The notes under the pieces: model-generated | What the model was told of the DNA's origin: nothing | The model's database searches: none | What the model saw: the letters and a program-made list of their open reading frames with translations, nothing else | Source: Escherichia coli | GTDB lineage: Bacteria > Pseudomonadota > Gammaproteobacteria > Enterobacterales > Enterobacteriaceae | Assembly: GCF_051903065.1 (NCBI RefSeq) | Contig: NZ_CP178438.1 | Length of the DNA: 64,000 nt | Strand: one strand, 5' to 3' | Program-made: the position numbers and the translations under genes | Part shown: in pieces, positions 52,353 to 62,097 of the stretch | Position numbering within the stretch: the first letter of the stretch is position 1 | How the letters are laid out: each line of letters starts with the position of its first letter

Positions 52353-52628
52353 GTGGCTTCTGTTTCTATCAGCTGTCCCTCCTGTTCAGCTACTGACGGG
52401 GTGGTGCGTAACGGCAAAAGCACCGCCGGACATCAGCGCTATCTCTGCTCTCACTGCCGTAAAACATGGCAACTGCAGTTCACTTACACCGCTTCTCAAC
52501 CCGGTACGCACCAGAAAATCATTGATATGGCCATGAATGGCGTTGGATGCCGGGCAACAGCCCGCATTATGGGCGTTGGCCTCAACACGATTTTACGTCA
52601 CTTAAAAAACTCAGGCCGCAGTCGGTAA
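52353..52628 (+). CDS. insA: IS1 InsA
   Basis: 91-aa [46 protein letters not shown]… (zinc-finger DNA-binding InsA). Confidence 0.95.
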
Positions 52629-53050
52629 CCTCGCGCATACAGCCGGGCAGTGACGTCATCGTCTGCGCGGAAATGGACGAACAGTGGGGCTATGTCGGGG
52701 CTAAATCGCGCCAGCGCTGGCTGTTTTACGCGTATGACAGGCTCCGGAAGACGGTTGTTGCGCACGTATTCGGTGAACGCACTATGGCGACGCTGGGGCG
52801 TCTTATGAGCCTGCTGTCACCCTTTGACGTGGTGATATGGATGACGGATGGCTGGCCGCTGTATGAATCCCGCCTGAAGGGAAAGCTGCACGTAATCAGC
52901 AAGCGATATACGCAGCGAATTGAGCGGCATAACCTGAATCTGAGGCAGCACCTGGCACGGCTGGGACGGAAGTCGCTGTCGTTCTCAAAATCGGTGGAGC
53001 TGCATGACAAAGTCATCGGGCATTATCTGAACATAAAACACTATCAATAA
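52547..53050 (+). CDS. insB: IS1 InsB' (expressed as InsAB' transposase by -1 frameshift)
   Basis: 167-aa ORF in the -1 frame relative to insA, overlapping its 3' end, as in IS1. Confidence 0.9.
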
Positions 53051-53560
53051 GTTGGAGTCATTACCGCCGCGACCGACCGCAAGCCACGAATAAGAACGAC
53101 GGCGAATTTCGAATCGTTACCTGATGCACTGGCTTCCCAGCGTTTGACCGTAGCGTTAAGTAAATCAACAAAAGCGATGTTCACCGCTTTTCGTCAAGTC
53201 GTGCCATTTGTCAGCCAGGATCGGGTCTTTACCCCGGATATTGCAGCATCGCAAAAATTCTTAGATGGATATGCTATAAATCAAAAATAAAATCTTTGTT
53301 GATTGTTTATCATAATATCCACAGATATGATAAATGATATCAATTTAATAATTTTCACTTAATGTGATTCCGGATAATTCGAAAGGCGCTGTGCTTTTCG
53401 GATTATTATTATCTGATTAAGATATTTGTCACGCCAGCCTTACTGGTTTATAAATGTCAATCATGATTCTTATAAATTATTTATTGCTGCTTTGGTTACC
53501 ATTACTTCGTAATAAGTAATGTATTTTTGATGGTTTAAACTATTTTTAAGGGACGGCATT

Positions 53561-54184
53561 ATGCGAGGGAAAATACCTAAAACGGAACTGCTGGTGACTT
53601 TTGAGGTCGTCGCACGTCATGAAAGTTATACCAGAGCGGCAGAGGAGTTAGCGTTAACCCAAAGTGCAGTATTCAGACAAGTAAGTGCGCTGGAGGAATT
53701 TTTACGTACTCCGTTATTTTCACACTCTAAAAAACGCATTTTTCTTAATGATACAGGGAAGTATTACCTGGGGATAGTAAAAGAAACATTAAATAAGCTG
53801 GAACGCGATACCAATACCATTATGACCTGGCAGCCTACGGTTCAGGTTATTGAACTTGCCGTTAATCCTACTTTTAGTACCCACTGGTTGATCCCAAATT
53901 TACATGAATTCACAAAGTTACATCCCGATATTATTGTTAATATTCATTCTTTAGCTAATAACGGCGATTTTCTTAATCGGGAGTACGATGCTGTCATTAT
54001 GCGCGAAAATTTTTGCGCGCCCTGGGCGGAAGTAGAATATCTCTTTGATGAGGAGATTTTGCCGGTATGCAGCGGCAGTTTGCTTGCAATGTCCGATCAA
54101 AAGCTGTCAGTGGCAGAACTGCTTACTGAGTTACCGCTTCTGCATCAAAGCACGGCTTTGTTGAATAAATCAGATTTCGGGTAA
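53561..54184 (+). pseudogene. LysR-family transcriptional regulator, 3'-truncated by the IS903-like element (native codons 1-197; the last codons are IS-derived)
   Basis: N-terminal LysR-type HTH (…LVTFEVVARHESYTRAAEELALTQSAVFRQVSALEEFL…); the reading frame runs into the IS903 inverted repeat at 54153 and terminates 32 nt inside it; AT-rich. Confidence 0.8.
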
Positions 54185-55210
54185 GTCTCCCCCGTAGCGG
54201 GTTGTGTTTTCAGGCAATACGCACGCTTTCAGGCATACCTGCTTTCGTCATTTTGTTCAGCGCTCGTACCAGGGCCATAGCCTCTGCAACCTGACCATCG
54301 TAGTCACGCAGTGTCAGTGAACCCCCGAACAGCTGTTTTACCCGGTACATCGCCGTTTCCGCTATCGAGCGACGGTTGTAATCTGTTGTCCATTTCCACC
54401 GCGCATTACTCCCGGTCATTCGCTGATTAGCCACTGCACGGTTACGGTCTGCATATTCACCGGGCCAGTAACCCGCACCTTTTCGGGGAGGGATAAGCGC
54501 GCTGATTTTCTTACGCCGCAGTTCATCGTGACATAGCCGGGTATCGTAAGCGCCATCGGCGGCGGCTGACCTGATTTTCCGGTGGGTTTGCCGGATTAAC
54601 CCGGGGAAGGCCTCTGAGTCCGTAACGTTGTTCAGCGACAGGTCAGCGCAGATGATTTCATGTGTTTTACTGTCAACGGCGAGATGCAGCTTACGCCAGA
54701 TACGGCGGCGTTCCTGGCCATGCTTTTTGACTTTCCACTCGCCTTCACCGAAGACCTTCAGCCCGGTGGAATCAATTACCAGGTGTGCGATTTCACCCCG
54801 GGTGGGCGTTTTGAAACTGACATTAACCGACTTTGCCCGCCTGCTGACACAGCTGTAATCCGGGCAGCGTAGCGGAACGTTCATCAGAGAAAAAATGGAA
54901 TCAATAAAGCCCTGCGCAGCGCGCAGGGTCAGCCTGAATACGCGTTTAATGACCAGCACAGTCGTGATGGCAAGGTCAGAATAGCGCTGAGGTCTGCCTC
55001 GTGAAGAAGGTGTTGCTGACTCATACCAGGCCTGAATAGCTTCATCATCCAGCCAGAAAGTTATGGAGCCACGGTTGATGAGGGCTTTATTGTAGGTGGG
55101 CCAGTTGGTGATTTTGAACTTTTGCTTTGCCACGGAACGGTCTGCGTTGTCGGGAAGATACGTGATCTGATCCTTCAACTCAGCAAAAGTTCGATTTATT
55201 CAACAAAGCC
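54153..55210 (-). mobile_element. IS903-like element (IS5 family, IS903 group), about 1058 bp, with 18-bp terminal inverted repeats and no flanking target duplication
   Basis: Ends ggctttgttgaataaatc (54153-54170) and gatttattcaacaaagcc (55193-55210); encodes the transposase below; flanking 9-mers tcaaagcac and atttatcag differ. Confidence 0.85.
54210..55178 (-). CDS. IS903-type transposase
   Basis: ORF …KQKFKITNWPTYNKALINRGSITFWLDDEAIQAWYESATPSSRGRPQRYSDLAITTVLVIKRVFRLTLRAAQGF… with DDE-type motifs (…VIDSTGLKV…, …AADGAYDTR…, …YNRRSIAETAMYRVKQLFG…); the track start is at 55178, and the true start may be an internal GTG. Confidence 0.85.
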   Translation of the reverse strand: MKDQITYLPDNADRSVAKQKFKITNWPTYNKALINRGSITFWLDDEAIQAWYESATPSSRGRPQRYSDLAITTVLVIKRVFRLTLRAAQGFIDSIFSLMNVPLRCPDYSCVSRRAKSVNVSFKTPTRGEIAHLVIDSTGLKVFGEGEWKVKKHGQERRRIWRKLHLAVDSKTHEIICADLSLNNVTDSEAFPGLIRQTHRKIRSAAADGAYDTRLCHDELRRKKISALIPPRKGAGYWPGEYADRNRAVANQRMTGSNARWKWTTDYNRRSIAETAMYRVKQLFGGSLTLRDYDGQVAEAMALVRALNKMTKAGMPESVRIA

Positions 55211-60816: not shown

Positions 60817-62097
60817 GTGTCAAAGGCAACCGAACAAAACGACAAGCTCAAGCGGGCGATAATTATTTCAGCAGTGCTGCATGTCATCTTATTTGCGGCG
60901 CTGATCTGGAGTTCGTTCGATGAGAATATAGAAGCTTCAGCCGGAGGCGGCGGTGGTTCGTCCATCGACGCTGTCATGGTTGATTCAGGTGCGGTAGTTG
61001 AGCAGTACAAACGCATGCAAAGCCAGGAATCAAGCGCGAAGCGTTCTGATGAGCAGCGCAAGATGAAGGAACAGCAGGCTGCTGAAGAACTGCGTGAGAA
61101 ACAAGCGGCTGAACAGGAACGCCTGAAGCAACTTGAGAAAGAGCGGTTAGCTGCTCAGGAACAGAAAAAGCAGGCTGAAGAAGCCGCAAAACAGGCCGAG
61201 TTAAAGCAGAAGCAAGCGGAAGAGGCGGCAGCGAAAGCGGCGGCAGATGCTAAAGCGAAGGCCGAAGCGGATGCTAAAGCTGCGGAAGAAGCAGCGAAGA
61301 AAGCGGCTGCAGACGCGAAGAAAAAAGCAGAAGCAGAAGCCGCCAAAGCCGCAGCCGAAGCGCAGAAAAAAGCCGAGGCAGCAGCTGCGGCGCTGAAGAA
61401 GAAAGCGGAAGCGGCAGAAGCAGCTGCAGCTGAAGCAAGAAAGAAAGCGGCAACTGAAGCTGCTGAAAAAGCCAAGGCAGAAGCTGAGAAGAAAGCGGCT
61501 GCTGAAAAGGCTGCAGCTGATAAGAAAGCGGCAGCAGAGAAAGCTGCAGCCGACAAAAAAGCAGCAGAAAAAGCGGCTGCAGAAAAGGCAGCAGCTGATA
61601 AGAAAGCAGCGGCAGAAAAAGCCGCCGCAGACAAAAAAGCGGCAGCTGCAAAAGCAGCAGCTGAAAAAGCAGCAGCTGAAAAAGCCGCTGCAGCAAAAGC
61701 TGCCGCAGAGGCAGATGATATTTTCGGTGAGCTAAGCTCTGGTAAGAATGCACCGAAAACGGGGGGAGGGGCGAAAGGGAACAATGCTTCGCCTGCCGGG
61801 AGTGGTAATACTAAAAACAATGGCGCATCAGGGGCCGATATCAATAACTATGCCGGGCAGATTAAATCTGCTATCGAAAGTAAGTTCTATGACGCATCGT
61901 CCTATGCAGGCAAAACCTGTACGCTGCGCATAAAACTGGCACCCGATGGTATGTTACTGGATATCAAACCTGAAGGTGGCGATCCCGCACTTTGTCAAGC
62001 TGCGTTGGCAGCAGCTAAACTTGCGAAGATCCCGAAACCACCAAGCCAGGCAGTATATGAAGTGTTCAAAAACGCGCCATTGGACTTCAAACCGTAA
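60817..62097 (+). CDS. tolA: Tol-Pal system protein TolA
   Basis: 426-aa ORF with GTG start: N-terminal TM anchor, long Ala/Lys/Glu-rich helical domain II encoded by tandem repeats, C-terminal domain III. Confidence 0.9.
   Translation: MSKATEQNDKLKRAIIISAVLHVILFAALIWSSFDENIEASAGGGGGSSIDAVMVDSGAVVEQYKRMQSQESSAKRSDEQRKMKEQQAAEELREKQAAEQERLKQLEKERLAAQEQKKQAEEAAKQAELKQKQAEEAAAKAAADAKAKAEADAKAAEEAAKKAAADAKKKAEAEAAKAAAEAQKKAEAAAAALKKKAEAAEAAAAEARKKAATEAAEKAKAEAEKKAAAEKAAADKKAAAEKAAADKKAAEKAAAEKAAADKKAAAEKAAADKKAAAAKAAAEKAAAEKAAAAKAAAEADDIFGELSSGKNAPKTGGGAKGNNASPAGSGNTKNNGASGADINNYAGQIKSAIESKFYDASSYAGKTCTLRIKLAPDGMLLDIKPEGGDPALCQAALAAAKLAKIPKPPSQAVYEVFKNAPLDFKP
61180..61720 (+). repeat. tandem degenerate repeats encoding the TolA domain II (A/K/E/D-rich helix)
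   Basis: Repeated units of the form aaa-gcg/gca-gca-gct-ga(a/t)-aag (…KAAAEKAAADKKAAAEKAAADKK…) seen directly in the sequence. Confidence 0.85.

Follow-up and report, generated by a model that had tools for sequence, protein, structure and literature searches.

The tolA gene of Escherichia coli encodes a protein whose central part is built from repeated DNA, and the allele studied here, which is slightly longer than that of K-12, raises the question of whether it carries a genuine change in repeat number and, if so, what such a change would mean for the protein. The gene lies in the window, by which we mean the whole stretch of 64,000 nucleotides of E. coli DNA that was analysed (contig NZ_CP178438.1) and to which all positions refer. 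The reading that we favour, with a probability of about 0.93, is that the tract is the tandem repeat already known from within E. coli tolA and that the allele in the window has gained one unit, being a near-neutral natural length variant.

The tolA gene and its repeat tract

The reading frame at 60817-62097 encodes a TolA of 426 aa, as the initial annotation had proposed. Its start and stop coincide with those annotated in K-12 and in strain 23CRST027, where the product is the RefSeq protein WP_001624913.1, which is also the protein encoded in the window, and its identity as TolA is given by the NCBIfam equivalog PRK09510 (557.9 bits, cutoff 213), by a second NCBIfam TolA model, TIGR02794 (310.5 bits, cutoff 59.45), and by a Pfam match of domain III to PF06519 at aa 330-424 (E = 2e-38; 130.9 bits, cutoff 25). 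The boundary of domain I (Table 1) is reportedly the one drawn by Levengood et al. in 1991. The translated membrane anchor (...IIISAVLHVILFAALIWSS...) contains residues S18, H22, L29 and S33 of the SHLS motif within a stretch identical to K-12; this Ser-His-Leu-Ser motif has been named as the part of the anchor that couples it to TolQR (PMC10666116). The composition of domain II, as far as it can be judged from the translation, fits an extended alpha-helix, and this domain has been described as a structured helical force transducer reaching from the TolQR motor to the outer membrane (PMC10666116).

The genes around tolA match the NCBIfam equivalog models of YbgC, TolQ, TolR and TolB, with pal as the next gene in line according to the annotation of the identical genome 23CRST027, and the order is the standard ybgC-tolQRA-tolB-pal, downstream of cydABX-ybgE. 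The final 25 kb of the window are 100% identical to E. coli 23CRST027 and 23CRST031, bar one 47-nt copy-number difference far from tolA. The segment concerned (55164-55210), which ends in an IS903 terminal repeat (…CGATTTATTCAACAAAGCC), occurs once in the window and twice in tandem in 23CRST027, and is the only difference from that genome over the 25 kb. It falls in the interval between sucD and cydA (about 52353-55210), where the annotation of 23CRST027 places IS1A, a truncated LysR-family gene and IS903B, and where most other E. coli have some 10.7 kb more, including fumarate hydratase and methylaspartate mutase genes; the interval looks like the outcome of an IS-associated replacement or deletion.

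The long run of degenerate repeats that the initial annotation had placed at 61180-61720 is present, the repeats detected by Tandem Repeats Finder (TRF) lying inside these coordinates and scoring above all shuffled controls. The best-scoring repeat has a period of 78 (2.8 copies, 61487-61709, 82% matches, score 260); a period of 15 (13.3 copies, 61492-61700) and one of 33 were also detected, together with weaker two-copy repeats of periods 24, 36 and 45 at 61215-61443. Shuffling the codon order 200 times never gave a score as high as 260 (mean 69, maximum 200), nor did 200 shuffles that kept the dinucleotides (mean 44, maximum 89). Taken separately, the degenerate half at 61180-61488 scored 116 against a shuffle mean of 50 and a maximum of 94, a value that 0/200 shuffles reached, and the canonical tract scored 271 against a codon-shuffle maximum of 148. 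Since the real scores exceed those of all shuffles, the repeat signal is carried by the order of the units and not merely by the Ala/Lys/Glu composition. The canonical tract spans aa 225-298 in 222 nt and every unit of the in-frame parse encodes K(K)AA(A)[E/D/A]. Units TR11 and TR12 are exactly identical, and every other pair of units differs in sequence. Exact identity at a period of 15 covers 61650-61685; where in that stretch the extra unit sits is therefore ambiguous, and an aligner may equally place the gap at 61650-61664.

Table 1. Position of tolA, its domains and repeat units, and the antisense reading frames in the window
Feature	Position	Strand	Basis
tolA CDS, GTG start, 426 aa plus stop	60817-62097	+	ORF list
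Domain I, N-terminal membrane anchor, then GGGGG linker	60817-60957	+	translation
Domain II, long Ala/Lys/Glu-rich helical spacer, ~aa 48-315	60958-61761	+	translated composition; helicity from literature
Upstream degenerate repeat part, periods 24, 36, 45, two to four copies each	61180-61488	+	TRF
Canonical tandem-repeat tract, 14 units of 15 or 18 nt	61489-61710	+	unit parse and TRF
TR11, AAAGCAGCAGCTGAA (KAAAE), first of identical adjacent pair	61651-61665	+	alignment, unit parse
TR12, AAAGCAGCAGCTGAA (KAAAE), second identical copy, unit absent from K-12	61666-61680	+	alignment, unit parse
Domain III, TolA C-terminal domain, binding TolB, phage g3p and colicins	61804-62088	+	PF06519
Antisense ORF, 229 aa (AAAFSAAAF...), low-complexity Ala/Phe/Ser	61155-61844	-	ORF list
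Antisense ORF, 159 aa, low-complexity Leu/Gln/Pro-rich	61274-61753	-	ORF list

Comparison with K-12 and length variation in E. coli

The tolA gene of K-12 MG1655 (b0739, NP_415267.1) has 1266 nt and encodes 421 aa, the length from which a small difference in repeat number had initially been suspected. Alignment and unit count left this suspicion standing: the global alignment contains one 15-nt insertion and 14 substitutions, all of them synonymous, and the same parse yields 14 units in the window and 13 in K-12, the difference being a single KAAAE unit. All 421 aligned residues are identical, the TolA of the window having five additional residues after TR11, and the two genes share the GTG start, the domain order and the ybgC-tolQRA-tolB-pal context. 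A second form of 426 aa, the SMS-3-5 type (WP_000030636.1), carries its extra unit at the same site of the tract; that unit, however, is KAAAA, a copy of the TR10 core, whereas the one in the window is KAAAE, the two types differing by a single E283A in the protein and by two bases in the unit. The SMS-3-5 type is several times commoner than the window type.

Length variation of the tract, also anticipated, is extensive. Our survey set comprised 5,426 complete E. coli genomes, tolA being found in 5,425 of them; the search left one genome with no match, placed two matches on plasmids and gave a few genomes with two places. A systematic sample taken at 60 evenly spaced ranks of the 5,425 contained at least 14 gene-length classes, from 1185 to 1311 nt. 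The K-12 length of 1266 nt was found in 39/60 (65%), followed by 1311 nt (six genomes), 1299 nt (three) and 1185 nt (two), and single genomes had 1281, 1290, 1263, 1260, 1251, 1233, 1221, 1215 and 1203 nt; one further sampled record is annotated as a frameshifted tolA pseudogene. In that record, from strain NIPH17_0036 (NZ_AP024561.1, locus 301-1442), tolA is 1142 nt long and has an internal stop; the gene could really have been lost, or the repeat could have been assembled wrongly.

The 23 alleles that were translated encode proteins of 394-436 aa and, in a regular-expression parse, 9-16 units, and every indel in them lies where domain II is rich in Ala and Lys. Sixteen of the alleles were aligned; they show no variation in domain I, in the initial part of domain II or in domain III, and their indels fall mostly in the canonical tract and in a few cases just upstream of it. 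The degenerate upstream part has natural indels as well, of +8 aa in 2020N21-246 and of -2 aa in JA0257 (NZ_CP072786.1, source 'Spontaneous mutant'), where a 6-nt deletion outside the canonical tract turns …AEAAEAAAAEA… into …AEAAEAAEA…. The O157:H7 strains 86-24 and Z887 have TolA proteins of 394 and 404 aa, with deletions that extend upstream of the canonical TR1; the difference in length between these two strains implies that the tract varies within a clone-like lineage. The unit of a classical on/off contingency locus is not a multiple of 3, and a change in copy number there shifts the reading frame; the units of tolA measure 15 or 18 nt, and 59/60 sampled alleles are intact and in frame. 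Length variation modulates TolA rather than switching it off.

Four independent complete genomes, one from pig, one from meat and two of human origin, carry the full 1281-nt allele of the window with 100% identity. When a 150-nt junction query was matched against the complete E. coli genomes, the exact window-type junction was found in six of the 5,426; about 46 records, under 1%, match the query ungapped and hence have some extra unit at the site, and nearly all the remaining ones align to it with a 15-nt gap. An exact look-up of the 426-aa protein in a collection of 15 billion sequences did not find it, which probably reflects how that collection stores sequence. Could the extra unit be a repeat miscounted in sequencing or assembly? 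Repeat tracts are a classic site of assembly errors, of which the frameshifted tolA of NIPH17_0036 may be an example, but the recurrence of one allele in four genomes from different hosts and of its junction in six, including GF4-3 and D8 where the synonymous background is slightly different, together with an insertion of exactly one in-frame unit into a tract of only 222 nt in which all units are unique except for the duplicated pair, makes such an artefact highly improbable.

Antisense reading frames across the tract

Two long minus-strand ORFs, initially reported as spurious products of the same tract, exist exactly at 61155-61844 and 61274-61753, and their dismissal appears reasonable. The T content of the tract is 5.9% and it contains only three TTA/CTA/TCA trinucleotides (5.5 per kb, vs 36 per kb elsewhere in the window); with so little T and so few trinucleotides that read as stops in antisense, the frames opposite to tolA stay open. 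Neither antisense product matched any model in a search of NCBIfam, and neither ORF is annotated in the RefSeq records examined.

That one of the two might be a real gene overlapping tolA is suggested by their lengths and, for the longer one, by the fact that 17 of the 21 natural substitutions are synonymous in its frame. This frame, however, shares its wobble positions with tolA, which is itself under selection, and the synonymous excess is therefore automatic and uninformative on coding. More generally, the antisense of an alanine-rich GCN gene that shares the wobble position also reads GCN (Ala), one base out of phase; synonymous-site tests are thus unable to tell such an ORF from a real gene. 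In the frame of the shorter ORF none of the natural substitutions is synonymous (16/16 change a residue or the stop codon), and one of them removes the stop. Considering also that the products are low-complexity strings with no NCBIfam match or annotation, and that the scarcity of T and of TTA, CTA and TCA explains the openness of the frames, the probability of a real overlapping gene is close to nil. On the sequence data both ORFs are reasonably regarded as by-products of the repeat, and long antisense ORFs across the tolA tract are not to be called as genes.

Recurrent one-unit gains and their likely consequences

The tract has been the subject of previous work by Zhou, Vanoirbeek, Aertsen and Michiels (2012, Res Microbiol 163:316), on the intragenic tandem-repeat region of E. 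coli tolA, and by Zhou, Michiels and Aertsen (2012, PLoS One 7:e47766; PMC3477136), on its rearrangement. In MG1655 tolA the latter study counted 13 imperfect units, each of 15 or 18 bp; the 234 isolates that it covered had 8-16 units, 66% of them having 13. Contraction occurred at a frequency of 6.9e-5 in clonal MG1655 populations, fell to 15% of this value in a recA mutant, rose 3.3-fold in a uvrD mutant and was unaffected in mutS; five-unit deletions predominated, which fits the 78-nt higher-order period detected here by TRF, and TR12 and TR13 were never involved in the contraction assay (PMC3477136). The initial annotation had attributed changes in the tract to slipped-strand events: expansion and contraction are well founded, whereas for the mechanism these published data favour RecA-dependent recombination over pure replication slippage (PMC3477136).

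Gene, tract and Lys/Ala-rich units of 15 or 18 bp are those described by Zhou et al. 2012; the 13 units of MG1655 agree with our parse, the share of 13-unit alleles is 66% there and ~65% here, and the 14 units of the window lie inside the published range of 8-16, with no difference in kind. The tract, its unit structure, its variability among strains, the genetics of its rearrangement and its phenotypes were thus already published in 2012. Our additions are modest, namely the length range in complete genomes (394-436 aa, sampled from about 5,400) and evidence for recurrent one-unit gains at TR10-TR12, where the extra unit of the window is shown as an exact duplicate of TR11 and the +1 change takes several natural DNA forms, including a TR12/TR11 hybrid in strain G5. 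A paper on Borg elements mentions repeat-bearing TolA-like proteins but does not concern this locus. The idea that typing schemes for Salmonella or O157 make use of tolA found no confirmation in the literature and was dropped.

The forms of the extra unit fall on two flanking haplotypes. On a window-like haplotype there are the exact TR11 duplicate (the window, GF4-3 and D8), a hybrid unit AAAGCAGCAGCTGCA (CUWW06 and A16), a duplicate of the TR10 core AAAGCGGCAGCTGCA (SMS-3-5 and many others) and a +2-unit form (14EC033). On a K-12-like haplotype, strain 2018-02-2CC has a TR10-core duplicate in K-12's own spelling, and the unit of G5, AAAGCCGCAGCTGAA, is TR12 in its 5' portion and TR11 in its 3' portion; the G5 protein is identical to that of the window and comes from a different DNA event. 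These forms are what misaligned exchange between adjacent units should produce when the crossover point varies, and the sequences of the inserted units together with the two flanking haplotypes suggest at least three apparently independent events among the +15 variants at the site. A separate origin for every one of them is unproven, CUWW06 sharing flanking markers with D8 and having a unit one base off the window type. Some of the variants on the window-like haplotype are only 1-2 bases apart (1 for CUWW06, 2 in the unit for SMS-3-5) and could stem from one event followed by mutation or conversion. It can be speculated, though we consider it rather unlikely, that the TR10-TR12 junction is a natural hotspot of recurring one-unit gains whose convergence reflects selection for fine-tuning of spacer length in some lineages rather than mutation pressure alone; if true, TR12, which was never rearranged in the published contraction assay, takes part in natural expansions.

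For the allele in the window, the gain of one unit in a known repeat would be explained as follows. Units of 15 or 18 nt build the C-terminal part of the alpha-helical domain II, the spacer by which domain III, starting from the TolQR motor in the inner membrane, reaches TolB-Pal on the far side of the periplasm. Because neighbouring units are near-identical at the DNA level, recombination or slippage between misaligned units adds or removes whole units in frame. Such a misalignment at TR10-TR12 would have led to the gain of one unit and to the two identical adjacent copies at 61651-61680, the outcome being a TolA of 14 units and 426 aa in place of the 13 units and 421 aa of K-12. As the two copies are exactly identical and the allele is rare, a recent gain seems a better description than an ancestral state; the alignment would be no different if an ancestor with 14 units had lost one at another place.

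In designed helical peptides and rigid linkers of the (EAAAK)n type, the sequence favours a lone, stable alpha-helix that grows longer with each unit added. Peptides and linkers of this kind are said to go back to Marqusee and Baldwin in 1987 and to Arai et al. in 2001. They share their logic with the tolA units (Ala runs, with Glu/Asp and Lys at i, i+4), a likeness of mechanism only that implies no homology, the TolA of the window being presumed helical from published work on domain II. An extra KAAAE would lengthen the helix by about 0.75 nm (5 residues x 0.15 nm), and the KAAAE pattern, like that of the designed lone-helix peptides, would have no partner register to disturb. For this reason a change of one unit is probably near-neutral, and TolA is most likely fully functional.

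Large changes of copy number in the tract are connected to phenotype. A tolA deletion is complemented, at least in part, by every variant of 2-39 units, more units give higher tolerance to deoxycholate, phage fd plates best on the 13-unit form, and high salt at low pH is tolerated best with 6-13 units (PMC3477136). It could be argued that tolA acts as a contingency locus and that its 14-unit setting is adaptive, having been selected in this lineage because it helps the cell to tolerate bile or to resist filamentous phage or colicins, all the more as large copy-number changes shift the deoxycholate, fd plating and high salt/low pH traits in opposite directions (PMC3477136) and as +1 variants arose repeatedly at the site, the window type and the G5 type converging on the same protein. 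We regard this as very unlikely. The window type is rare, all +15 variants together staying under 1% of the records, and the 13-unit length is dominant; alleles of 6, 8 and 13 units behaved alike under SDS, high salt and high salt at low pH (PMC3477136), and the mutation process alone predicts recurrence.

The 426-aa form of TolA is established as a true allele that occurs in nature rather than an error, and the length of tolA is unsuitable as a sign of misassembly or pseudogenisation. The significance of the finding beyond annotation is small; the tolA locus is a published case in which a spacer that spans the envelope is tuned by a repeat varying in frame.
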